Source: a virus. Taken from it: a DNA stretch of 64,000 nucleotides. A program made the translations under genes and the position numbers. Location of the stretch: the UHGV virus genome UHGV-1378516. One strand, given 5' to 3'. The notes under the pieces are model-generated. The model was not told the DNA's origin, did not search any database, and saw only the letters and a list, made by a program, of their open reading frames with translations. Shown in pieces: positions 653 through 11,632 of the stretch. Within the stretch, counting starts at the first letter, position 1, and each line of letters starts with the position of its first letter.

Positions 653-877
653 TATGTTTTCTCCAAATAGTTAACCATGTTTCCCCTTAAAAAAGACGGC
701 ACAGAGACCGTCAAGGAGAAACCACAATGTACGTCAGAGACATACTGTATAAGTCTTCCTATAAAGTATAACTCTGTAAAAAAGCCCTGTCTAAAAATAC
801 TCTTCGGTAGCGAAAGGAAGAATACTTATAGCAGGGCATTATTATTATTTTAATTGAGAGAGAGTAAAATAACTTGG

Positions 878-950
878 AGAATCCGAAGGGACTCGAACCC
901 TTATAAACCTGTTTTGCAGACAGGCACATAGCCATTTCTGTCACGGATTC
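878..950 (-). tRNA. tRNA-Cys (anticodon GCA)
   Basis: Perfect 7-bp acceptor stem GAATCCG/CGGATTC, T-arm GGGTTCGAGTCCC, anticodon loop CTGCAAA. Confidence 0.7.
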
Positions 951-954
951 AAAT

Positions 955-1047
955 TGGAGGAAGATACCAGACTTGAACTGGTACACCGATTTCTCAGCTA
1001 CTGGCAGTTTAGCAAACTGCTCCCTTACCTTTTAGGGTTAATCTTCC
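955..1047 (-). tRNA. tRNA-Ser (anticodon GCT), type II, CCA encoded
   Basis: Acceptor GGAAGAT/ATCTTCC, T-arm ACCAGTTCAAGTCTGGT, anticodon stem GCAGT/ACTGC with loop TTGCTAA, long variable arm. Confidence 0.6.
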
Positions 1048-1049
1048 AT

Positions 1050-1784
1050 TTATTTCTGTAATACGTTCTTCATTTCTGGTGTTGCAATAGTGTCAATTAC
1101 ACCAGTTTTACAAGCATCATCAAACCAGTCTGGTAAGATACCTGCTAAGAACCCATTGATATTCGTTTTAAGGTACTCTGCAATAAGAGCAGCTTCTTCT
1201 TCAATCATCTGCACAACTTCATCTGCATAAGCTGTAATTTTTGAAATACCTTCATTAATCTTACTAACAGCTTGGTTAGCTAAATCAGAAATAGTATCAA
1301 GACCTTTGTCAATAGCGTCTTGTAAGTCACTTAATACATCATTAACACCGTCTAGTGCACTGTTAATCGTATCAATAGCTTTTTGACCATACTCTGTAGC
1401 AACACCCATAATACCACTAAATGGTGTACAACCAACTTGTTCACCTGCTGCACCCATAACATTAGAATAGCCTTTTGCTACCTGCATACGTGATGAGAAC
1501 TCATCAATGGACTTTTGACCGTAATCTGTCAGTGTTTTGGTAGTTGATGTAGTGCTTGTCAGACTCGTGGTAAAGCTGTTAAGCAGAACTGTTGTGAGTC
1601 CAGCAGCAACAAGCTTATCCTTTACTGTAGGGTCTGATACAGAGCTAATAGAGCTTACAAGTGATGTAGAGGCAGCTACGGTTCCGCCGAGAACTGCTGC
1701 ACCAGTAATAAGGGGGTTAGAAAACCCTTTACCAGTTTTTAAGAGATTGAAAATCTCCTTACCTTGTTCTGTCATCTCTTTCAT
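1050..1784 (-). CDS. hypothetical Ala/Thr/Ser-rich protein (start moved to internal ATG so it does not overlap tRNA-Phe)
   Basis: ORF 1050-1847 in track; ATG at 1782-1784 with AAAGGTG RBS; upstream 20 codons overlap a tRNA. Confidence 0.5.
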   Translation of the reverse strand: MKEMTEQGKEIFNLLKTGKGFSNPLITGAAVLGGTVAASTSLVSSISSVSDPTVKDKLVAAGLTTVLLNSFTTSLTSTTSTTKTLTDYGQKSIDEFSSRMQVAKGYSNVMGAAGEQVGCTPFSGIMGVATEYGQKAIDTINSALDGVNDVLSDLQDAIDKGLDTISDLANQAVSKINEGISKITAYADEVVQMIEEEAALIAEYLKTNINGFLAGILPDWFDDACKTGVIDTIATPEMKNVLQK

Positions 1785-1802
1785 TAAGCACCTTTGAAAT
1801 TG

Positions 1803-1877
1803 GTAGTCCAGTGGGATTTGAACCCTCTTCTCATGTTTTTCAGACACGCGCTTTAACCATATAAGCTACTTGGACTA
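1803..1877 (-). tRNA. tRNA-Phe (anticodon GAA)
   Basis: Acceptor TAGTCCA/TGGACTA, T-loop TTCAAAT, anticodon loop CTGAAAA. Confidence 0.65.
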
Positions 1878-1885
1878 TAAATTGG

Positions 1886-1958
1886 GGTGACCTACGGGAT
1901 TTGAACCCGTATAGACCATGTTCACAGCATGGGTCATTACCATTTATGATAAGGCCAC
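1886..1958 (-). tRNA. tRNA-His (anticodon GTG)
   Basis: Acceptor GTGGCCT/AGGTCAC, T-arm ACGGGTTCAAATCCCGT, anticodon stem CCATG/CATGG loop CTGTGAA. Confidence 0.7.
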
Positions 1959-1992
1959 ATTTAAGGACTCTCGTAAGAATCCTTAGAAGTGG

Positions 1993-2065
1993 CAGCGGCA
2001 TAAGGATTTGAACCTTAATAGGACAGCTTCAGAGACTGTTGCATTGCCAGTTATGCTATACCGCT
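1993..2065 (-). tRNA. tRNA-Gln (anticodon CTG)
   Basis: Acceptor AGCGGTA/TGCCGCT, T-arm TAAGGTTCAAATCCTTA, anticodon loop CTCTGAA. Confidence 0.6.
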
Positions 2066-2072
2066 AAATTTG

Positions 2073-2142
2073 GTACTCCATATCGGATTCGAACCGATAC
2101 ATAACACAGATTTTAAGTCTGGCCTCTCTGCCAATTGGAGTA
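2073..2142 (-). tRNA. tRNA-like gene, short (about 68-70 nt), anticodon loop CTTAAAA (UAA, nominally Leu); non-canonical D-arm
   Basis: T-arm ATCGGTTCGAATCCGAT and acceptor pairing present; D-arm does not fold canonically. Confidence 0.4.
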
Positions 2143-2154
2143 ATGGAGCATTGG

Positions 2155-2227
2155 CGGGGGATGTTGGAATTGAACCAACTTCTTCGATTTCAAAGACCGA
2201 GGTTTTAACCTTGTAAACTAATCCCCT
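2155..2227 (-). tRNA. tRNA-Gln (anticodon TTG)
   Basis: T-arm GTTGGTTCAATTCCAAC, acceptor AGGGGAT/ATCCCCC (1-72 mismatch), anticodon loop CTTTGAA. Confidence 0.55.
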
Positions 2228-2235
2228 TTAAATCT

Positions 2236-2793
2236 TTACTTTCTTAGTGGATGAATAAAGAATGCCAACATAACTCTTTCCCTTGAGAATGCTCTTTCTT
2301 CTGGGACAACGCTTTTAAGTTTCCACCCAACATAAATTCTCCAGTAAAATTGTTTACCAAAGATTTTGATTGATGGCACAAAAGCGAATAACCCCCAAGC
2401 ATTACTGTTCCACATTAGGAGATAACCAGTTTGATTATCTTCAGGGTTAGAACTTACGTTGATATTACCTTTCCACTTAGTAACGTCTTTTACATCTCTT
2501 CCTAACACATGGTAAGAGAAGTTATAAGCTTTGTTTCTCCAGAGCCATCCAACTCTCTGCATGTAGACACCAAGCTTACCAATCTTTCTAATCTTAGCCC
2601 ATCGTTTGATATGACCTGCATCACCATCAATTGGGTTGTCATAAGTCTCCATCCATCTGAACCCGAAAGGCAAGTGTCCTTTCTTCTCACTGTAGAATGG
2701 AACTACAAAAGGTGCTAAGATAACTGCTAAGATTGCTGCAAATGGCTCTAACAAAGCTAAGAAAATCCATGAAGCATACTTTAAGTATCTCAT
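2236..2793 (-). CDS. hypothetical membrane protein embedded in tRNA cluster
   Basis: ORF track 185 aa; hydrophobic N-terminus IFLALLEPFAAILAVILAPFVVPF. Confidence 0.5.
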   Translation of the reverse strand: MRYLKYASWIFLALLEPFAAILAVILAPFVVPFYSEKKGHLPFGFRWMETYDNPIDGDAGHIKRWAKIRKIGKLGVYMQRVGWLWRNKAYNFSYHVLGRDVKDVTKWKGNINVSSNPEDNQTGYLLMWNSNAWGLFAFVPSIKIFGKQFYWRIYVGWKLKSVVPEERAFSRERVMLAFFIHPLRK

Positions 2794-3032
2794 TGTCTAA
2801 TCCTCGTAAGGAGGTAAATGTTATTATTAGTTTCTAAACCTTCTGGTAAAACTGTCTCAAAAATAACACTCTTCAGATGTCTACCACCAAAACAATCACG
2901 TATAAATCTTTCTACTCTAGCGGGGTCACATAAGTATCCCACTTTTAAGAAAATGTGGTGTTCAACACCAATGACCCTGACAAACTCAATACTCTCACAG
3001 TTTTCATGTTCAACTACTGTTAATGTTTGCAT
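2790..3032 (-). CDS. hypothetical protein (80 aa)
   Basis: ORF track; 4-nt overlap with downstream gene suggests translational coupling. Confidence 0.4.
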   Translation of the reverse strand: MQTLTVVEHENCESIEFVRVIGVEHHIFLKVGYLCDPARVERFIRDCFGGRHLKSVIFETVLPEGLETNNNIYLLTRIRQ

Positions 3033-3052
3033 AGTATCACCTTTTTATCTGG

Positions 3053-3125
3053 CGCAGGATAAGGGATTCGAACCCCTATTAACAGCTTCGTAGACTGTTG
3101 CTCTTTCCATTTGAACTAATCCTGC
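3053..3125 (-). tRNA. tRNA-Arg (anticodon ACG)
   Basis: Perfect acceptor GCAGGAT/ATCCTGC, T-loop TTCGAAT, anticodon loop CTACGAA. Confidence 0.7.
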
Positions 3126-3133
3126 AAAATTGG

Positions 3134-3208
3134 TGTTCCAAGACGGATTCGAACCGTCACTAATACAAGGTTTGAGCTTGCATCCTCTGCCAATTGGGAT
3201 ACTGGAAC
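3134..3208 (-). tRNA. tRNA with anticodon CAA (nominally Leu) but short type-I architecture
   Basis: Acceptor GTTCCAG/TTGGAAC, T-arm GACGGTTCGAATCCGTC, anticodon loop CTCAAAC, discriminator A; no long variable arm. Confidence 0.5.
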
Positions 3209-3212
3209 ATGG

Positions 3213-3284
3213 TACTCACTAAAGGACTTGAACCTTTTTCTTCATCTTGTAAGGGTGATGTTTTACCATATAAACTAAGCGAGT
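3213..3284 (-). tRNA. tRNA-Val (anticodon TAC)
   Basis: Acceptor ACTCGCT/AGTGAGT (one GU), T-arm AAAGGTTCAAGTCCTTT, anticodon loop CTTACAA. Confidence 0.55.
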
Positions 3285-3288
3285 ATGA

Positions 3289-3376
3289 AAGAGGTCTGGA
3301 GTTGTGCCGCTAACTCAACTCCGTGGAATTTGTTACGGTCTTCAGTTGACTCAAAGCGGTCTTTCACTTGACCTCT
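3289..3376 (-). ncRNA. tRNA-sized structured RNA candidate without canonical T-loop
   Basis: 7-bp terminal pairing AGAGGTC/GACCTCT spaced 88 nt apart, internal 7-bp hairpin GGAGTTG...CAACTCC; no TTCRANT T-loop. Confidence 0.25.
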
Positions 3377-3383
3377 GAATTGG

Positions 3384-3456
3384 TGCTCCCACAAGGACTC
3401 GAACCCTGATAAGTTGCTTACAAGGCAACCGTAATAACCAATTATACGATAGGAGC
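3384..3456 (-). tRNA. tRNA-Thr (anticodon TGT)
   Basis: Acceptor GCTCCTA/TGGGAGC, T-arm CAGGGTTCGAGTCCTTG, anticodon stem GTTGC/GCAAC loop CTTGTAA. Confidence 0.65.
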
Positions 3457-3466
3457 ATTAATTTGG

Positions 3467-3538
3467 AGCATCCAGAGGGAATCGAACCCTCAACCTCAGT
3501 TTGGAAGACTGTAATTTTCCCGTTTAAACTATGGATGC
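3467..3538 (-). tRNA. tRNA-Gly (anticodon TCC)
   Basis: Perfect acceptor GCATCCA/TGGATGC, T-arm GAGGGTTCGATTCCCTC, anticodon loop CTTCCAA. Confidence 0.65.
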
Positions 3539-3547
3539 ACTAATTGG

Positions 3548-3620
3548 TGGAGTCACCGAGAATTGAACTCGGTTCCCAAGTTTGCAAAACTCGAATTTTA
3601 ACCATATAAACTATGACCCC
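3548..3620 (-). tRNA. tRNA-Ala (anticodon TGC)
   Basis: Acceptor GGGGTCA/TGACTCC with G3-U70, T-arm CCGAGTTCAATTCTCGG, anticodon loop TTTGCAA. Confidence 0.7.
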
Positions 3621-3629
3621 AATGTCTGG

Positions 3630-3702
3630 TACAGGTGGAGGGAATTGAACCCATCGTCTTACTGATTAAGAGTCAGCCGCATAACCATTTTGCTACACCT
3701 GC
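3630..3702 (-). tRNA. tRNA-Lys (anticodon CTT)
   Basis: Acceptor GCAGGTG/CACCTGT, T-loop TTCAATT, anticodon stem GCTGA/TCAGT loop CTCTTAA. Confidence 0.55.
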
Positions 3703-3712
3703 ATTAATTTGG

Positions 3713-3788
3713 TAGGAGACAAGGGATTCGAACCCTCAAGCATCTCGTTCTAAGCGAGATAGGTCTACCAAGTTGCCGTCAATCTCCC
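3713..3788 (-). tRNA. tRNA with anticodon TAG (nominally Leu), type-I length
   Basis: Acceptor GGGAGAT/GTCTCCT (two GU), T-arm GAGGGTTCGAATCCCTT, perfectly palindromic anticodon arm ATCTCG-CTTAGAA-CGAGAT. Confidence 0.5.
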
Positions 3789-4044
3789 ATTAAATCTTTT
3801 TAGAGAACTTCTAAGAACCTGAGCAACAAGGTTCCACAACAAGCGACTAATAACCTTAGAAGCCCTCTAAAAAGACCTAAATAGGTCTTTGCATAGTCTT
3901 GTTTAATCCGGTGACTAGAACCTTTGGAGAGCTTGATATTATCTCTTCTCCGTGACACCTACTAGGTGCTTTGACAGTGTACGACAATACACGAGGGATA
4001 AACCGACAATGCGAACAAGCATGGACGGAGTAAATCTTATTAGG

Positions 4045-4132
4045 CGGTAAGTAAAGGAGTCGAACCCTCACCGTATCTCTACAGTGGCAACAGTTTTCAA
4101 GACTGTTTGGCTGCCATTAGCCGCTACCTACC
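4045..4132 (-). tRNA. tRNA-Ser (anticodon TGA), type II
   Basis: Acceptor GGTAGGT/ACTTACC, T-loop TTCGACT, anticodon stem ACAGT/ACTGT loop CTTGAAA, long variable arm. Confidence 0.6.
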
Positions 4133-4148
4133 CCTAATAAGACTTTGG

Positions 4149-4228
4149 CATGGGACGGAGGAGTTGAACCCCTTTGAAACGGTTTTGGAGGCCGTTGCTC
4201 ATGCCTTAGAGTCTTAACATCGTCCCAT
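4149..4228 (-). tRNA. tRNA-like gene (80 nt), anticodon undetermined (possible 9-nt loop containing CCA)
   Basis: Perfect acceptor ATGGGAC/GTCCCAT and T-arm AGGGGTTCAACTCCTCC; interior does not fold into canonical D/anticodon arms. Confidence 0.4.
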
Positions 4229-4373
4229 ATTATAATTCGAAGCTTACCCTGTTATCTCAACACTGTCAAGCTTCTTCTCAGATTATTTACATGTTCTGGA
4301 AAACATGAGATACAGACCACCTCCCTACAGGAAGACCCGCTAAGGCCGTCTAAGTAATCTGCTAACTATTTGG

Positions 4374-4447
4374 TACACCCTACAGGATTCGAACCTGTAA
4401 CTAACGATTTAGAAGACCGTTGCTCTATCCAATTGAACTAAGGGTGC
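4374..4447 (-). tRNA. tRNA-Arg (anticodon TCT)
   Basis: Acceptor GCACCCT/AGGGTGT, D-arm GTTCAATTGGATAGAGC, T-loop TTCGAAT, anticodon loop CTTCTAA. Confidence 0.65.
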
Positions 4448-4696
4448 ATTATCTTTAAAGACTCTCTTAGAAAGCCCTTAAAGATGCCCACCTTATTAAT
4501 CATACCGTGGGCGAGTACGCCAAATTCTTTGATGAGGGATTGGAAGACCTCACTGGTGTTTAGCCTATCAAGCTACTGCCAGAAAAACATTGTCGTTTGC
4601 ATTTATTTTAAATTTGCAAAATAGACGCTACGCAACGAAAACTAAGGTTACTATAAAGTAGTCACATCTCAATGTCAACAACTTTATTGAAATTGG

Positions 4697-4769
4697 TACT
4701 GGTAGGTGGAATCGAACCACCGATGTTCCCTTATCAGGGGAGTGTTATAACCTTCTTAACTATACCAGC
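4697..4769 (-). tRNA. tRNA-Ile (anticodon GAT)
   Basis: Acceptor GCTGGTA/TACCAGT, T-arm GGTGGTTCGATTCCACC, anticodon loop CTGATAA. Confidence 0.65.
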
Positions 4770-4773
4770 TTGG

Positions 4774-4847
4774 AGGTTCAGATGGGAATCGAACCCACAT
4801 TCATAGGGCTTATGAGACCCTTGCATTACCTTATCTGCGACTGAACC
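4774..4847 (-). tRNA. tRNA-Met (anticodon CAT; initiator-like GGG/CCC in anticodon stem)
   Basis: Perfect acceptor GGTTCAG/CTGAACC, T-loop TTCGATT, anticodon stem AGGGT/GCCCT loop CTCATAA. Confidence 0.6.
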
Positions 4848-4854
4848 ATATTGG

Positions 4855-4927
4855 TAGAAGTGGAGGGATTCGAACCCATCGCCTGTCAGATTAAAAGTCT
4901 GCCGCATCACCATTCTGCTACACTTCC
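4855..4927 (-). tRNA. tRNA-Lys (anticodon TTT)
   Basis: Acceptor GGAAGTG/CACTTCT, T-loop TTCGAAT, anticodon loop CTTTTAA. Confidence 0.6.
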
Positions 4928-5126
4928 ATTAAATTATCTTTGTAGATAAGCTACCCAGACTTGCTTAAGGTCTGTAGCGATGTGCCTTTTGGGTTTAAAT
5001 CTAGAATTTACCCATTCACCCTTTGTGGTCGCATACTCACAGGTAAGCTTAATAACTTATCTACAAAGATAATTACCAGACCGTTGTTTATCATCTTAAG
5101 TGCTACCATTACACCAACTCGACATC

Positions 5127-5172
5127 TGCCGAGTGAAGGAATCGAACCTTCGCCTTTTCTTTACCGGAGAAA
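5127..5172 (-). pseudogene. tRNA remnant: 3' half (T-arm + acceptor 3' strand) plus an anticodon-arm-like hairpin (loop CCGGTAA), no matching 5' acceptor strand
   Basis: T-arm GAAGGTTCGATTCCTTC present; no complementary 5' acceptor strand within 100 nt. Confidence 0.3.
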
Positions 5173-5358
5173 TAGATTGTTTAAGTTTTGCTGTAAACGG
5201 TCTTCTGTAAATTTGTTGAGCCAGACCAAGTTTTAAATTTTCAAAATTAAATTGGCTTGAAATTTCATACGTTCTTGCTGTATTTGGTCTTCTGCTCCTT
5301 TAAAGAATACTCGTAAGAACTCTTTAAGGGAGGGGCTAAATAGCCCTCTCAAAATTGG

Positions 5359-5433
5359 CGGTTACGAAGGGATTTGAACCCTCATCATCTCCCGTGACAG
5401 GGGAGTATTTTAACCAGATTAAACTACATAACC
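5359..5433 (-). tRNA. tRNA-Asp (anticodon GTC)
   Basis: Acceptor GGTTATG/CGTAACC, T-loop TTCAAAT, anticodon stem CTCCC/GGGAG loop CTGTCAC. Confidence 0.65.
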
Positions 5434-5441
5434 TTTATTGG

Positions 5442-5526
5442 TGTGCCGTGTAGGAGTCGAACCTACCGAGTCTCAATGACAAGGGATTTACAGTCCCCAC
5501 CGCTACCATCTACGGGATAACGACAC
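5442..5526 (-). tRNA. tRNA-Tyr (anticodon GTA), type II
   Basis: Acceptor GTGTCGT/ACGGCAC, T-arm GTAGGTTCGACTCCTAC, anticodon loop CTGTAAA, long variable arm. Confidence 0.6.
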
Positions 5527-5598
5527 ATTTAATTTCTATTCAGGCTAAGGACTTGCACCTTACAAATCGGTGAGCAATCGCTTCTCTCCTAAATTTGG

Positions 5599-5672
5599 CG
5601 GTTAGTCAGGGATTCGAACCCTGTGCCATTCGCTTAACAGGCGACCGCACATACCTTATGTGCTTCCTAACC
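5599..5672 (-). tRNA. tRNA-Asn (anticodon GTT)
   Basis: T-arm CAGGGTTCGAATCCCTG, acceptor GGTTAGG/ACTAACC, anticodon loop CTGTTAA. Confidence 0.6.
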
Positions 5673-5759
5673 ATGTTTAGTATTACCAGACCGTATCTTT
5701 CAATTTTTTCCGCTAAAAATTTAATAAATATTGCTGTAAACGGTCTTCTGTAAATTTGG

Positions 5760-5833
5760 AGGCGGGTGCAGGAGTCGAACCTGCCGATACCATGCTAATG
5801 AGACATGTGAGACGCCCTTTCTCTATACCCGCA
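5760..5833 (-). tRNA. tRNA-Met (anticodon CAT), 1-72 mismatch
   Basis: T-arm GCAGGTTCGACTCCTGC, acceptor TGCGGGT/ACCCGCC, anticodon stem CATGT/GCATG loop CTCATTA. Confidence 0.55.
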
Positions 5834-5927
5834 ATTCTTAATGACCAGACCAAATCTCTTCTTTGTCCGATTTACCTTCAGATGAATAAGATTAAGTTTG
5901 CTGTAATTGGTCTTCTGTCAAAACTGG

Positions 5928-6002
5928 CGTTCCAGAAGGGATTTGAACCCTCAAATATCCACTTTGAAAGAGTGGTGACTTTACCATTTTGTCTACTGGA
6001 AC
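5928..6002 (-). tRNA. tRNA-Glu (anticodon TTC)
   Basis: Perfect acceptor GTTCCAG/CTGGAAC, T-loop TTCAAAT, anticodon stem CCACT/AGTGG loop CTTTCAA. Confidence 0.65.
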
Positions 6003-6012
6003 ATTAATTTGG

Positions 6013-6086
6013 TCTCTGTTGGAGGACTTGAACCTCCGGCCTTACCGCCCCAAACGGAACGCTCTACCAAGCTGAGCTAAACAGAG
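6013..6086 (-). tRNA. tRNA-Pro (anticodon TGG)
   Basis: Perfect acceptor CTCTGTT/AACAGAG, canonical D-arm GCTCAGCTTGGTAGAGC, T-arm GGAGGTTCAAGTCCTCC, anticodon loop TTTGGGG. Confidence 0.65.
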
Positions 6087-6251: not shown

Positions 6252-7667
6252 TTACCAGATGTAACGGTCAATCATTACTGCTTTGAGCATTACGCTGATT
6301 GGGTCAAACTTCTCACCACCAAGCAGAGCTTTTAAAGTGGCTGGAGAGAAACCAGATACCATTGCTACACCGTTATCCTTAACGGACACTTCGCAAGTAC
6401 CATTACGGTTTGCTAAGTACCAGAATACCAGTTGTGGCATCTCATATCCAGCTTTTTTGTACTTGCTCTGAATTGCTTCAAAGTTTGTACGACCGTTAGC
6501 TCCATCAACCTGATTGAACTCCATATCAGAGAATATGATAAGCTTACTTGGCATATCTTTCTGAGTCAAGTTGTTTCTCTTACCTATTTCAAGAATGCGG
6601 TCAAAAGCTGCTTGTAAGTTAGTTGAACCATATTCAACATGACGCATTACCTGACGATGACGGTTTCGTAAATCACCACTCAGTTCGATGAAGTGAGGGT
6701 TTGTTGAATAAACCATCAACTCATTCTTAAAGCAACCTGTATTGCGTTCTGCTACATACAAGGCAAGTGATACACCAATATCAAGGGCGGTGATTGAACC
6801 AAGATTCACCCAAGACATTGAGCTTGAAACATCAGTCATACACAAGATGTTTTCACCTTCTGCCATCCAGTTTGGTAGTGCTTTCCACTGCTCATTGGCA
6901 ACATCTGCATTACCATGCTTGATAGACTTAATCACATCGTATGGGTAAACAGCACCAGCATTAATCTTAGCCTCACCCTTTGATAAGGACTCAATGTAAG
7001 CTTTGTAGCGTTCTCCATCTTTACGGTTAAACAGTTTTTGGTAACGTGCAGCAGCAAGTGAAGGAATCTTACTGTAGTCAATCTTACCAAACTCATTAGC
7101 AGAGATTTTTTGCTCAACTGTATCAGATAGTGCAGACAACAGTGTGCGGTACTCTTTCTCACTCAAGTTGGCAAACTTGCAGAAACGTTTTACAAACTGC
7201 TTATGACGTGGTTTGACTCGTGGTAACCACTTAGCTGCCAAACCTGCTGTTGCAGGGTCTAGTAATGCTGCTTCTAAATGTTTGAAGGCATCTGTCTCGA
7301 AACGAGTACCTACGAAGATTTTGAAGTCATCAAAACGGCCAAGTTCTGCAATCTTATCCATAATACGAAGAACCTGCGTAGACTCTAAAACTTTGTCTTC
7401 AATTGCTTGAAGCAAAACAGTTCTGAAGGCTTTACGCTCACCCATACCTTCTCGTACATCTCGCATATGAAGCAAAATACGAACTGCAACATCAACATCC
7501 TCACGCAAAGCTTTGTAGAACAGGTCTGGTAAGATTTCTACGTTGCTACGGCTTGAACCAGCAGCTTTGTAAAAGTCTACAAGAGCAGACATTGATGAAG
7601 TATGGTTTACAGCACCATTTTCAGTTCGACCTGCATGAAGGTGCGCATGTTTAAATAATTCGCTCAT
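6252..7667 (-). CDS. von Willebrand factor A (vWA) domain protein, DUF2828-like
   Basis: 471-aa ORF; MIDAS-type DxSxS motif (MTDVSSSM) followed by a vWA-like C-terminal region. Confidence 0.5.
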   Translation of the reverse strand: MSELFKHAHLHAGRTENGAVNHTSSMSALVDFYKAAGSSRSNVEILPDLFYKALREDVDVAVRILLHMRDVREGMGERKAFRTVLLQAIEDKVLESTQVLRIMDKIAELGRFDDFKIFVGTRFETDAFKHLEAALLDPATAGLAAKWLPRVKPRHKQFVKRFCKFANLSEKEYRTLLSALSDTVEQKISANEFGKIDYSKIPSLAAARYQKLFNRKDGERYKAYIESLSKGEAKINAGAVYPYDVIKSIKHGNADVANEQWKALPNWMAEGENILCMTDVSSSMSWVNLGSITALDIGVSLALYVAERNTGCFKNELMVYSTNPHFIELSGDLRNRHRQVMRHVEYGSTNLQAAFDRILEIGKRNNLTQKDMPSKLIIFSDMEFNQVDGANGRTNFEAIQSKYKKAGYEMPQLVFWYLANRNGTCEVSVKDNGVAMVSGFSPATLKALLGGEKFDPISVMLKAVMIDRYIW

Positions 7668-9330: not shown

Positions 9331-9377
9331 GTGTGAATAGGGGCTGATGCCCCTTTAACTATTTATAAGGATATTTA

Positions 9378-9749
9378 ATGAAAGCTAAGAGTGCAAAAGA
9401 CTTTTATTGCTTCCTACAATCCTATATCAATTCCGTGCAAAATGGTGAAAGGTACAACCTTAATGATGTTATCCCAACACCTTTGACATGGAGACTCAGT
9501 AAATGGCCTGAAGAAGATATTACACCAACAATCGAACAATGCACCTACAAACCCGAAATAAATATTCCAGACTCTGAGAATCTATTATATCCAATGTTCC
9601 ATATTGTTGGTCTTGGAAGATTCCTTATGGATATCCAGTATGTAATTGGTAAAGGTTATAAGGTTAAAGGTATTGTTGTTGGTGATGTATCTCCGCATCA
9701 CAAAGGTTATTTTAGACTAAACGCACATTTAGAGGCTAAAAAGAAATGA
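9378..9749 (+). CDS. hypothetical protein, paralogue of the N-terminal domain of the following Ig-like protein
   Basis: Shares motifs with 9746-11131 N-terminus (...FxxxxxxNVxxGxRY..., WPEE/WPEAD, DxxYxIG...). Confidence 0.5.
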   Translation: MKAKSAKDFYCFLQSYINSVQNGERYNLNDVIPTPLTWRLSKWPEEDITPTIEQCTYKPEINIPDSENLLYPMFHIVGLGRFLMDIQYVIGKGYKVKGIVVGDVSPHHKGYFRLNAHLEAKKK

Positions 9750-11131
9750 TTAAAGCAAAGACTTACCCAGACTTCAAAGAGTTTGTGAAGGGCTTCATTG
9801 CAAATGTAAAGGCTGGTAAGAGATATGATTTTAGAACATATCAAGAGGCTATTTTACCACTCACCTATAGTTCATATTGGCCTGAAGCTGATATTGCAGA
9901 AGTTGAGGAGTTTGACTACAAACCAGACTACAAAGTCCCATTTAGCGATGAGTTGCTTTACAGCGTTGGTGCTCAAATGAGAACTTCTGACTTCTTCATG
10001 GACTTACAATATACAATTATCAATGGTAAAGACGTTGATACAGTTTATTGTGAATGGCTGGCAAGAGTTAAACCGTTCTCAATGTTGAATGCTAAGTTGA
10101 AGGATGCTATCAAGCCACCAGCAATCACTCAGCAACCAACCAATCAAACAGTAAATGAAGGTGGTACACTTAACCTAAGCGTTATTGCAACTAATGCCAC
10201 AGGATATCAATGGAAAAAAGATGGTGAGGATATCACTAGCGCCACATCTGCAACCTACACAAAACAGTCTGTAGTACCTTCTGATGCAGGTTCATACACT
10301 TGCGTTGTATCTGGAGAGGCTGGAACAAGCGTTACCTCAGATGCGGCAACAGTTACTGTTAACGCACTACCTGTGATTACACAGCAACCTTCTAGCCAGA
10401 CCATCAATGAGGGTGGAAACATCAGCTTGGAAGTGACTGCAACGGGTGCAACTGGTTACCAGTGGAAGAAAGATGGCTCTGACATTCCTTCGGCTACAGA
10501 GGCTACCTATAGCAAGTCTGGTGCTCTGCCAGCAGATGCAGGTTCATACACTTGCGTCGTAACAGGGGCAGGTGGTTCTGTTACTTCTAGCCCTGCAACT
10601 GTCACGGTAAATGCTTTACCAGTTATTACCAAGCAGCCAACCAATCAGGTAGTTAATGAGGGTAGCTCTTTGACACTGAGTGTTGAGGCGACAGGTGCGG
10701 AAGGTTACCAGTGGAAAAAGGACGATGTGAACATCCCTAGTGCAACTGGTGCAACTTACACGAAAGCTAACGCAGTTCCTGACGATGCTGGTTCATATAC
10801 CTGTGTAGTTACTGGTGCTGGTGGCACAACAGTCACATCTAATGCTGCAACGGTTACTGTGAATGCACTTCCTGTAATCACTCAACAGCCAATCAATCAA
10901 GAAATCACTGAAGGTGAGACCTTAACGCTGAATGTTGTGGCAACAGGTGCAACAGGCTATCAGTGGAAGAAGGGTGAGGAAAACATCCCAGACGCAACTA
11001 CTGCAACTTACACCAAAGAAGGTGCAACCACTGCTGATTCAGGAAGCTACACTTGTGTAGTGACTGGCGCAGGTGGCTCTGTAACATCTAATGCGGCAAC
11101 AGTTACAGTTAACCCAGCAGGGGAGGCATAA
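9746..11131 (+). CDS. Ig-like (I-set/Big-like) repeat protein, 4 tandem ~82-aa domains; Hoc-like decoration or adhesin candidate
   Basis: Repeated unit P(V/A)ITQQPxNQxxNEGxxLxLxVxATGATGYQWKKDGxDIxSATxATYTKxxxxxxDAGSYTCVVTGAGGxxTSxxATVTVN. Confidence 0.65.
   Translation: MIKAKTYPDFKEFVKGFIANVKAGKRYDFRTYQEAILPLTYSSYWPEADIAEVEEFDYKPDYKVPFSDELLYSVGAQMRTSDFFMDLQYTIINGKDVDTVYCEWLARVKPFSMLNAKLKDAIKPPAITQQPTNQTVNEGGTLNLSVIATNATGYQWKKDGEDITSATSATYTKQSVVPSDAGSYTCVVSGEAGTSVTSDAATVTVNALPVITQQPSSQTINEGGNISLEVTATGATGYQWKKDGSDIPSATEATYSKSGALPADAGSYTCVVTGAGGSVTSSPATVTVNALPVITKQPTNQVVNEGSSLTLSVEATGAEGYQWKKDDVNIPSATGATYTKANAVPDDAGSYTCVVTGAGGTTVTSNAATVTVNALPVITQQPINQEITEGETLTLNVVATGATGYQWKKGEENIPDATTATYTKEGATTADSGSYTCVVTGAGGSVTSNAATVTVNPAGEA
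10123..11106 (+). repeat. 4 tandem ~246-bp coding repeats (Ig-like domains)
   Basis: Units begin near 10123, 10369, 10615, 10861. Confidence 0.7.
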
Positions 11132-11595
11132 TGCAACTCTCACAGAAAGGTTTAGAAGCTATTAAGTTCTTTGAAGGTCTGAAGCTAGAGGCTTACGAAG
11201 ATTCTGCTGGAATCCCAACAATTGGGTATGGGACTATCCGTATTGCTGGTAAGCCTGTTAAGATGGGTATGAGGATTACCGCTGAACAAGCTGAACAGTA
11301 TCTTCTCGCAGATGTTGAAAAGTTCGTTGCAGCAGTGAACAAAGCCGTCAAGGTTCCAACTTCTCAGAATGAGTTTGACGCACTTGTAAGTGAAACATAC
11401 AACATTGGCATCACAGCCATGCAGGACTCTACATTTATCAAGCGCCACAACGATGGTAATAAGGTAGGTTGTGCAGAAGCTATGCAGTGGTGGAACAAGG
11501 TTACAGTCAAAGGTAAGAAGGTCACTTCAAACGGCCTGAAAAACAGACGTAGAATGGAAGCTGACATTTATCTTGACAGTGTATACCCAAAGTAA
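11131..11595 (+). CDS. endolysin, T4-lysozyme-like (GH24) muramidase
   Basis: N-terminal signature EGLKLEAYEDSAGIPTIGYGT matching catalytic Glu/Asp/Thr region of T4 lysozyme; 154 aa. Confidence 0.8.
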   Translation: MQLSQKGLEAIKFFEGLKLEAYEDSAGIPTIGYGTIRIAGKPVKMGMRITAEQAEQYLLADVEKFVAAVNKAVKVPTSQNEFDALVSETYNIGITAMQDSTFIKRHNDGNKVGCAEAMQWWNKVTVKGKKVTSNGLKNRRRMEADIYLDSVYPK

Positions 11596-11605
11596 TATCT
11601 TCATA

Positions 11606-11632
11606 GGCTCCTTCGGGAGCCTTTTTTATTTT
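11606..11632 (+). terminator. rho-independent terminator
   Basis: Hairpin GGCTCCTTCGGGAGCC followed by TTTTTTATTTT. Confidence 0.7.

Follow-up and report, generated by a model that had tools for sequence, protein, structure and literature searches.

The analysed DNA (the window) is a stretch of 64,000 nucleotides of the virus genome UHGV-1378516, which originates from a Felixounavirus, i.e. a myophage of the Felix O1/wV8 type; DNA identity to many genomes of this genus is 92–99%. Within the window, a compact cassette of three genes was recognized, encoding (i) a short protein of 123 aa, (ii) a long protein of 461 aa (ORF 9746–11131) and (iii) an endolysin (Table 1; the names used there are justified below). 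The first two ORFs have exactly the coordinates given in the initial annotation, and the lysozyme gene which it had placed beside them follows directly downstream. Start and stop codons of consecutive genes overlap: the ATG of the long ORF overlaps the TGA of the short one (ATGA), and the ATG of the endolysin gene overlaps the stop codon of the long ORF (TAATG), with the Shine-Dalgarno sequence of the endolysin gene (GGGGAGG) located within the 3' end of the latter. Synteny is kept with phages wV8, Sf14, Moogle, SUSP1 and phiEa104.

Table 1. Features of the three-gene cassette and its boundaries (positions within the window).
Feature	Position	Strand	Basis
GC-rich hairpin GGGGC-TGAT-GCCCC followed by TTT; upstream boundary of the cassette	9340..9356	+	Read from the sequence
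CapBD paralogue, stand-alone, without Ig domains, 123 aa	9378..9749	+	BLASTP, PDB match, AF2/Foldseek, dN/dS
Predicted Hex-Dec CapBD, residues 1-124	9746..10117	+	96.8% identity to Bas63 CapBD
Ig-like module 1, type A, residues 125-208	10118..10369	+	Pfam, repeat comparison, AF2
Ig-like module 2, type B, residues 209-291	10370..10618	+	Pfam, repeat comparison, AF2
Ig-like module 3, type C, residues 292-375	10619..10870	+	Module identity to Bas63/SME50
Ig-like module 4, type D, residues 376-456, then a 5-residue tail and stop codon	10871..11131	+	Repeat comparison, AF2
Endolysin, GH24 phage lysozyme	11131..11595	+	Pfam PF00959 Phage_lysozyme (E 1e-40); phrog_7
Intrinsic terminator AGGCTCC-TTCG-GGAGCCT followed by a T-run; downstream end of the cassette	11605..11632	+	Terminator scan

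The upstream hairpin has the same sequence as a rho-independent terminator listed for Felix O1 (Table 2 of that study), and a terminator is annotated at the equivalent position in wV8; a simple terminator scan missed it because its T-run is weak. The downstream terminator is also annotated at the same place in wV8. A sigma-70 promoter scan of the region between the upstream hairpin and the ATG of the short ORF found none. The box CTATTTATAAGG, conserved upstream of this ORF, was considered as a shared late-promoter motif and rejected, as the window holds no excess of it: allowing up to 2 mismatches, it matches 11 times where 8.0 would be expected, and 14 of 100 shuffles also reached 11. In the window, as in its relatives, the long ORF is located outside the structural module, directly upstream of the GH24 endolysin gene. 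The initial annotation had described this position beside the lysozyme gene correctly; its placement of the locus among early/middle genes needs to be revised, since RT-PCR of Felix O1 (Table 3 of that study) assigned ORF36 and ORF37 to the late class (60 min), along with the structural genes.

The long ORF encodes an N-domain of 124 aa followed by four tandem units of 84, 83, 84 and 81 aa. Searches against Pfam returned four stretches each for Ig_3, Ig_2 and I-set (E 1.7e-43 to 7.7e-34), residues ~125–455 were modelled by AF2 as four beta-sandwiches (pLDDT 92–97), and Foldseek matched this part of the protein to the Ig arrays of Robo, titin and sidekick (E 1e-26), all of which agrees with the Ig-like repeats proposed earlier. 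Their description as near-identical DNA repeats does not hold, as the four units share only 63–71% identity in DNA (68–73% in protein), with longest common exact words of 11–23 nt. Tandem Repeats Finder detected no array of the Ig-unit period, and the repeat search returned only cores of 36–41 nt with 64–83% identity. A recent tandem repeat was thus rejected, there being no high-identity array by any of these comparisons, and instability of the slippage type is not expected. The predicted variation in repeat number is nevertheless real, the relatives carrying from four Ig units down to one.

The long ORF is, judging by its sequence, the hexamer decoration protein of the Felixounavirus group, which goes by the names Hex-Dec (phage Bas63), gp20 (Sf14) and gp36 (Felix O1). 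With Hex-Dec of Bas63 (PDB 9NCF chain S) it shares 90.8% identity, and a phmmer search of PDB matched this chain (9ncf_S) over residues 1–459 (E 7e-271) as well as 9c2d_S (E 3.8e-209). The CapBD and Ig-like modules 1, 2 and 4 are each 96–97% identical to their Bas63 counterparts, and alignments with relatives revealed that both arginines known to be linked by salt bridges with Asp221 of the major capsid protein (PMC11821841), Arg79 and Arg107, are kept. When 1.84 billion representative proteins were searched with a profile, only 12 clusters were recovered, all of Ounavirinae-like CapBD proteins. In cryo-EM structures, the N-domain is found at hexamer centres of both Bas63 (PMC12609058) and Sf14 (PMC11821841), where one monomer sits on each of the 60 hexamers of the T=9 head that adjoin a pentamer. 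Mass spectrometry detected Felix O1 gp36 (44% coverage; PMC3185647) and Sf14 gp20 (PMC11821841) in purified virions. The virion decoration of the Hoc kind that had been suspected from the Ig-like repeats is therefore borne out on close homologues. For the CapBD, experimental chains were used, because the AF2 full-length model is poor across this domain (pLDDT 30–54); the Sf14 authors likewise report that the predicted CapBD does not fit the density.

In most database records, in PHROG 3995 and in the Felix O1 paper (as 'major tail protein'), this protein is assigned to the tail. This label was given because the Ig domains resemble those of tail proteins, and it is hardly credible, since the N-domain density of two phages lies at the centres of capsid hexamers; it is refuted by PDB 9NCF and 9C2D, and the Bas63 authors explicitly call it a mis-annotation. 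The long gene is thus already known and characterised in Felix O1-like phages, and finding it here is ordinary. Both its location outside the structural module and the variation in Ig number (1 to 4) have been published for relatives, so that the puzzle raised by the initial annotation was already covered. The value of the present identification is mostly corrective, as most records, including those of the closest relatives, still read 'tail protein' or 'hypothetical protein'.

Comparison of individual Ig-like modules provided an addition to the published picture. Module 3 of the window protein is only 65.5% identical to module 3 of Bas63, i.e. no closer than the repeats within the window protein are to each other, and is 92% identical to module 3 of SME50; Bas63 thus carries a different allele of this module. 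The four Ig domains of Bas63 were described as unique to this phage among ICTV species (PMC12609058). At least 8 deposited genomes carry four Ig domains (H1–H5, H31, H103 and the window's own type), so four-Ig alleles are not limited to Bas63 and occur in at least two versions, which differ in the third module. Copy-number variation is therefore a matter of whole, old, positionally orthologous modules being gained, exchanged or lost, and not of recent slippage.

The proposed working of Hex-Dec was established on close homologues and would extend to the window protein by virtue of the 97% identity of its CapBD. One monomer would insert its N-terminal CapBD of ~120 aa into the centre of each facet-edge hexamer (60 in the T=9 head), anchored partly via the salt bridges of Arg79 and Arg107, and the four acidic I-set Ig-like domains, which are known from prediction only, would extend outward as a flexible fibre. 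By analogy with T4 Hoc, whose functions the authors propose for it, this fibre may adhere weakly to surfaces or to mucus, or keep particle aggregation under control.

The short ORF is the less familiar part of the cassette. The initial annotation had described it as a paralogue of the N-domain, which was upheld by BLASTP (35% identity over 121 aa, E 2e-18), reciprocal PHROG cross-matches (E 2.7e-15 and 3.3e-17) and a PDB sequence search (9ncf_S, E 3e-12). Its AF2 model, with a pLDDT of only 65.6, was matched by Foldseek to 9ncf_S and 9c2d_S with a TM of 0.62 and a probability of 1.0. Equivalents are phrog_4463, wV8 gp42, Felix O1 gp37, Sf14 gp21 and VpaE1 gp40. No domain was found in Pfam, and the PHROG family is without an assigned function. 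The cassette including this paralogue has been kept throughout Felixounavirus, Mooglevirus and Suspvirus relatives, and it recurs on a divergent metagenomic contig of 87 kb; profile and paralogue searches found no stand-alone copy beyond these three genera and one metagenomic lineage. It is absent from Kolesnikvirus, and the duplication therefore postdates the split from this genus. The short ORF is thus an ancient tandem duplicate of the CapBD alone and a real, selected gene. Its dN/dS (median 0.139 in 36 pairs, dS up to ~1.2) indicates purifying selection, weaker than that on the CapBD (0.034), and it is translationally coupled to Hex-Dec.

A decaying duplicate or annotation artefact, or a fusion of both ORFs by -1 frameshifting on the A-rich AAAAAGAAATGA, would make the short ORF something other than a gene in its own right. 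In the REP9/Z31 lineage the paralogue is indeed a pseudogene, and it is dispensable there, Hex-Dec being intact and its CapBD almost unchanged; a -1 slip at AAA-AAG would also reach the Hex-Dec frame. Yet the ORF is intact (122–124 aa) in 233 of 253 records, and a dN/dS of 0.14 at saturating dS argues against decay. As regards fusion, the mass at which Felix O1 gp36 was identified, 31.6 kDa, is the one predicted for this protein by itself (PMC3185647), and a programmed frameshift was rejected because the slippery-like A-run is not kept among relatives (GAAAAG in wV8, GCTAAG in Sf14, and another overlap, of 8 nt, in Suspvirus). These explanations are accordingly considered very improbable.

What the paralogue may do is addressed by its differences from the CapBD. 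All 16 sequences examined have Gly at position 79, at position 107 they carry His or Gln (Arg only in P0099, the divergent metagenomic sequence), and net charge is reversed (pI 8.8 versus 5.0), so the paralogue may not bind the site of the CapBD at all. It also has invariant motifs of its own that are absent from the CapBD (e.g. YPMFHIVGLG and SPxHKGYFRLNA). Together with the higher dN/dS and the virion data given below, these differences would be consistent with a function off the capsid, e.g. late binding of a host or phage factor or a role with the adjacent endolysin, for which only the CapBD scaffold has been kept. Such a function is nonetheless judged unlikely: the tight coupling to Hex-Dec, conserved across genera, suggests a linked function, and neither Pfam nor PHROG revealed a domain or motif for another activity. 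The distant Ig-bearing CapBD proteins P0104 and P0105 also lack Arg79, and the loss of arginines in the paralogue is therefore not decisive on capsid binding.

The opposite possibility, that the paralogue is a second hexamer decoration, occupying the 20 three-fold-axis hexamers empty of Hex-Dec or sites of low occupancy and missed owing to symmetry averaging and its small size, accords with its predicted fold, which is that of the resolved CapBD, and with its late transcription and translational coupling upstream of Hex-Dec. Its basic charge would fit the acidic Asp221 ring and, as Asp221 is displaced in the true three-fold hexamers, one can conceive of a binder whose contact surface is different. 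However, neither cryo-EM study shows density on the other hexamers (PMC12609058, PMC11821841). The paralogue is also not among the virion proteins of Sf14 (gp21; PMC11821841), Felix O1 (PMC3185647) and, going by the wording of its main text, VpaE1 (gp40), although the proteomes of the latter two did include low-copy proteins. A second decoration is thus regarded as distinctly improbable.

The reading that we prefer, tentatively and at less than an even chance, is that, while heads are being assembled, the paralogue continues to target the centres of capsomers or Hex-Dec, as an accessory that is transient or sub-stoichiometric and is not kept in the virion. Instead of being a stable decoration, it would in that case influence the place or time of Hex-Dec loading. 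It is possible, if somewhat doubtful, that it is either an Ig-less 'blank', an assembly accessory of a new kind, or a third decoration that lies hidden on the 20 three-fold hexamers. As a 'blank' binding transiently to capsomer centres or to Hex-Dec, it would help to decide which hexamers (60 of 80) receive an Ig fibre, or when; as a hidden decoration, it would have been missed by icosahedral averaging and stringent proteomics.

Taken as a whole, the locus is very probably best explained by the identity of the long ORF as Hex-Dec, the three-gene cassette and the old CapBD-only duplicate upstream. No mention of the paralogue was found in the Bas63 paper, the Sf14 paper or the Sf14 supplement, a search of the 2025–26 literature on 'Hex-Dec' or Felixounavirus found no follow-up, and the mBio Citrobacter paper contains nothing relevant to it. 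The existence of a conserved, selected and co-expressed bare-CapBD partner of the decoration gene is therefore an addition to both structural papers, in which it is undiscussed. Both cryo-EM studies raise the question why Hex-Dec binds facet-edge hexamers only. If the paralogue controls the choice of hexamers, it would bear on this question and would matter for the use of Hex-Dec as a phage-display anchor.

Among known systems, the closest is Hex-Dec of Bas63 (Escherichia phage JohannRWettstein), of the same genus and with the same gene and architecture (CapBD plus four Ig-like domains), whose gene likewise adjoins the endolysin gene outside the structural module. Shigella phage Sf14 has the same cassette (paralogue gp21, decoration protein gp20 and endolysin gp19), and its gp20 (PDB 9C2D/9C3A chain S) has a homologous CapBD with Arg79 and Arg107, and was found as a monomer on pentamer-proximal hexamers and detected by mass spectrometry (PMC11821841); it differs in belonging to Mooglevirus and in having three Ig domains of divergent sequence. 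In Kolesnikvirus (Erwinia phages phiEa104/phiEa21-4), gp038 has a homologous CapBD and is also encoded directly upstream of the endolysin, but it carries one Big_2-type Ig domain in place of the I-set modules and has no stand-alone paralogue beside it. Protein pb10 of T5 (PDB 5LXK) similarly has a capsid-binding domain at its N terminus together with a C-terminal Ig-like domain at hexamer centres, and its Ig domain is detectably similar to the Ig part of the window protein (E 3.2e-12); in contrast to Hex-Dec, it has a single Ig domain and an unrelated capsid-binding domain, and binds all 120 hexamers.

Hoc of T4 resembles Hex-Dec in being a non-essential decoration of which a single monomer occupies the hexamer centre, and in its row of Ig-like domains, which vary in number among relatives and have an acidic surface, and 'Hoc-like head decoration' families of PHROG match the Ig part of the window protein (E 7.9e-57). 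The domain order is reversed, the CapBD being C-terminal in Hoc and N-terminal in Hex-Dec, and Hex-Dec, unlike Hoc, occupies only a subset of hexamers. Hoc is not known to have a stand-alone CapBD paralogue. The CapBD of Hex-Dec is larger than that of Hoc, topologically distinct, pseudo-C2 symmetric and without sequence similarity to it (PMC12609058), and when PDB was searched with the whole protein, the best 60 of 123 matches included no Hoc chain of T4 or RB49. By analogy, Hex-Dec of the window appears to work like Hoc and is not a member of the Hoc family.

At 92-99% nucleotide identity, the window DNA matches many genomes of Felixounavirus, myophages of the Felix O1/wV8 type with Escherichia, Salmonella and Shigella as hosts. 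PDB sequence searches matched the product of its long ORF (Hex-Dec) over nearly the full length to the Bas63 'Immunoglobulin-like domain protein' (9NCF chain S, E 7e-271) and to Shigella phage Sf14 gp20 (chain S of 9C2D and 9C3A, E 3.8e-209). Both are Hoc-like decorations, of which one monomer occupies the centre of each facet-edge, pentamer-adjacent hexamer of the T=9 head, while their flexible Ig-like domains are unseen in cryo-EM density (PMC12609058, PMC11821841). In Sf14, gp20 is salt-bridged through Arg79 and Arg107 to the major capsid protein residue Asp221 (PMC11821841). The window protein shares 90.8% identity with Bas63 Hex-Dec (96.8% within the N-terminal domain for capsid binding, CapBD) and keeps both arginines; therefore, the main gene is already known and structurally characterised. 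By every feature checked the protein belongs to the Ounavirinae Hex-Dec/gp20 family, and the finding as such is thus not new. The initial annotation had proposed that the Ig protein decorates virions, and this is borne out by cryo-EM of the Bas63 and Sf14 homologues and by mass spectrometry of virions, in which Sf14 gp20 (PMC11821841) and Felix O1 gp36 (44% coverage, labelled a tail protein at the time) were found. The 'tail protein' annotation is called wrong by the Bas63 authors (PMC12609058). The published mechanism was adopted for the long protein with high confidence: CapBD would plug 60 hexamer centres as a monomer, and the four acidic Ig domains would form an outward fibre with putative adhesion or aggregation roles, by analogy with Hoc.

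In Hex-Dec, four units of 84, 83, 84 and 81 aa stand in tandem behind an N-terminal part of 124 aa. Pfam models Ig_3, Ig_2 and I-set each matched four stretches (E 1.7e-43 to 7.7e-34), AlphaFold2 predicted four beta-sandwich domains (pLDDT 92-97), and Foldseek matched these to I-set arrays, e.g. Robo, titin and sidekick. Together with the alignment of the short upstream product described below, this upholds the anatomy described earlier, an N-domain plus four Ig-like repeats. The Ig modules also strikingly resemble repeats in GhpA, the grappling-hook protein of Aureispira, both in sequence (PDB 9FLP, E 1.2e-80, 16 stretches) and in structure (9FLU, TM 0.44-0.57), and therefore this I-set module type is common to Hex-Dec and bacterial surface fibres. 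CapBD itself was modelled poorly within the full-length protein (pLDDT 30-54), despite a 97% identical experimental domain; this agrees with the report of the Sf14 authors that the predicted CapBD was at odds with the density (PMC11821841).

The repeats had been described as near-identical at the DNA level and prone to expansion and contraction. The first point did not hold: the four units share 63-71% nucleotide and 68-73% amino-acid identity, their longest common exact words are 11-23 nt, and Tandem Repeats Finder reported no array with the repeat-unit period. The number of modules does vary, Felixounavirus homologues having one to four Ig-like domains (PMC12609058). In a spread sample of 60 of the 256 matching records, cassette lengths fell into four groups with a spacing of about 250 nt, which correspond to four modules (2218 nt, roughly 3 sampled records), three (1966 nt, roughly 14), two (about 1717 nt, roughly 21) and one (about 1465 nt, roughly 9). 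Clustering of individual modules showed them to be positionally orthologous and old, with types A (first) and D (last) kept in every architecture observed: A-D (VpaE1, BPS15Q2), A-B-D (wV8), A-B-C-D (window, SME50) and A-B-C'-D (Bas63). The variation thus suggests that whole diverged modules were lost, gained or exchanged, rather than slippage within a homogeneous repeat. Module 3 of the window is 65.5% identical to that of Bas63, against 96-97% for all other parts, and 92% identical to that of SME50, which makes at least two independent four-Ig alleles; the four-module form accordingly exists in at least two versions, with mosaicism inside the decoration gene. The four-module span also occurs in relatives' records H1-H5, H31 and H103, and such alleles are not unique to Bas63.

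Both ORFs were confirmed at the positions first assigned to them, as was the lysozyme gene directly downstream of the Ig gene. The short and long ORFs overlap by 4 bases (ATGA), the lysozyme ATG overlaps the long-ORF stop (TAATG), with a ribosome-binding site (GGGGAGG) closely upstream, and the first overlap is kept at 4 nt in Felixounavirus and Mooglevirus and is 8 nt in Suspvirus. By these overlaps, the upstream hairpin and the downstream terminator, the three genes form a compact, translationally coupled cassette. No convincing promoter was found: a sigma-70 scan of the hairpin-to-ATG interval gave none, and the conserved box CTATTTATAAGG was not enriched within the window. On its other side, the cassette is flanked by two divergently oriented genes and a 26-tRNA cluster (among them three tRNA-Leu genes and two each for Met, Gln, Lys, Arg and Ser), beyond which the structural module lies in the Felix O1 and wV8 annotations. 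A gene for a DUF2828/DUF7788 protein adjoins the tRNA island.

Features of the Hex-Dec locus and of related loci
Feature	Coordinates	Strand	Source or remark
tRNA island, Felix O1-type, 26 tRNA genes	875-6086	-	oriented away from Hex-Dec cassette
471-aa protein, DUF2828 + DUF7788, weak VWA match	6252-7667	-	PHROG 850 'RNA-binding protein'
GC-rich hairpin, 5' of short ORF	9340-9356	+	rho-independent terminator in Felix O1 and wV8 annotations
Paralogue (short) ORF, 123 aa	9378-9749	+	ORF call
Hex-Dec (long) ORF, 461 aa	9746-11131	+	ORF call
CapBD of Hex-Dec	9746-10117		
Ig module 3 of Hex-Dec	10619-10870		
GH24 phage lysozyme ORF	11131-11595	+	Pfam PF00959, E 1e-40
Clear intrinsic terminator, 3' of lysozyme	11605-11632	+	terminator scan
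Paralogue pseudogene, REP9	L004:1378-1569		
Paralogue pseudogene, Z31	L002:2806-2997		
Interrupted Hex-Dec, Z31	L002:2998-3570		
Metagenomic cassette (paralogue 122 aa, Hex-Dec 298 aa, lysozyme)	L012:4001-5726		ENA ERZ28599557
Felix O1-type paralogue, Staphylococcus phage SA1	143190-143558		GenBank GU169904.1

The cassette had been placed among early/middle genes. It does lie outside the structural module, by >10 kb in Bas63 (PMC12609058), but this position does not mean early expression: in RT-PCR time courses of Felix O1, the short gene (ORF37) and the Hex-Dec gene (ORF36) were both maximal at 60 min, in a class that also holds genes for portal, tail and fibre, whereas ORF35, the lysin gene, peaked at 25 min.

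The short gene is the only part of the locus outside the coverage of the searched papers; the words paralog and gp21 occur in neither of the structural papers, nor is the upstream gene discussed there (PMC12609058, PMC11821841), and no later literature using the term Hex-Dec was found. Its product aligns with the N-terminal part of Hex-Dec (35% identity over 121 residues, E 2e-18) and each protein matches the other's PHROG family, which confirms it as a stand-alone paralogue of the N-domain. With phmmer it matched both solved CapBD chains (E 3e-12 and 1.4e-11), and these were the only significant PDB matches of its moderate-confidence AlphaFold2 model (pLDDT 65.6, pTM 0.67; TM 0.62, probability 1.0). 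Nine phages that represent three genera were compared in pairs, at dS values reaching about 1.2; the short gene had a median dN/dS of 0.139, against 0.034 (CapBD), 0.113 (Ig module 1) and 0.087 (lysozyme). A full-length gene is present in 233 of the 253 phage records that matched (about 19 have no intact copy), and the order paralogue, Hex-Dec, lysozyme recurs in a divergent, Ounavirinae-like 87-kb metagenomic contig (ERZ28599557), where the nearest relatives found for the paralogue are the Mooglevirus copies (about 48% identity). Judged by these substitution rates and this spread, the short gene is real and under selection, so decay, an artefact or a frameshift fusion is very improbable; moreover, the A-run at the ORF junction is not conserved. 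GenBank GU169904.1, labelled Staphylococcus phage SA1, contains the Felix O1-type paralogue at 99.2% identity with an adjoining 'tail protein'; this assembly is probably chimeric or contaminated.

Only 12 clusters came out of a profile search against 1.84 billion representative proteins; CapBD is therefore a domain of narrow distribution, of the Ounavirinae type. Erwinia Kolesnikviruses carry it in fusion with a Big_2 domain, likewise adjoining the endolysin, and a stand-alone copy is absent from these phages, which places the duplication after the Kolesnikvirus split and before the divergence of Felixounavirus, Mooglevirus and Suspvirus.

As to the role of the short gene, we tentatively rank first a transient or sub-stoichiometric head-assembly accessory acting on capsomer centres or on Hex-Dec and not kept in the virion. 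Late co-expression, tight coupling to Hex-Dec and the common CapBD fold speak for such an accessory, as does its absence from virions: the paralogue is missing from the proteins that were identified in CsCl-purified particles of Felix O1 and, going by the wording of the VpaE1 paper, from the 22 proteins of that virion. A function away from the capsid, ranked second, is a weaker possibility, favoured by the loss of contact residues (the Arg79 equivalent is glycine in all paralogues and that of Arg107 is His, Gln or, in the ERZ28599557 lineage, Arg) and by reversed charge (pI 8.8, against 5.0 for CapBD). The same basic charge and the fold would suit a decoration that lies hidden on the 20 three-fold hexamers, which is unlikely given the proteomic data and the lack of density in hexamers left empty by Hex-Dec in both cryo-EM studies (PMC12609058, PMC11821841). 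The remaining probability falls to other functions.

Natural lesions add to this picture. In REP9 (USA) and Z31 (China) the paralogue is a pseudogene, with the start codon lost and about 220 nt deleted internally between identical boundaries, a single ancestral lesion common to both; the paralogue is therefore dispensable for a viable phage. Hex-Dec of REP9 is intact, with CapBD almost unchanged. In Shigella phage Z31, Hex-Dec is cut by a stop codon ten residues past CapBD, perhaps a genuine natural variant, perhaps an error of sequencing. What remains is an Ig-less CapBD protein of 134 aa and a fragment (55 aa) from the last Ig module, which illustrates a route to Ig-less CapBD proteins.

The additions to the published picture are modest: a second four-module allele, variation at the level of modules rather than by slippage, and a selected CapBD-only paralogue undiscussed in the structural papers. 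No Hoc chain was present among the best 60 of 123 PDB sequence matches. By analogy, the window protein would work like T4 Hoc and T5 pb10; it is not of the same family as Hoc, in which the domain order is reversed and the domain that binds the capsid bears no relation to CapBD in sequence and topology (PMC12609058).
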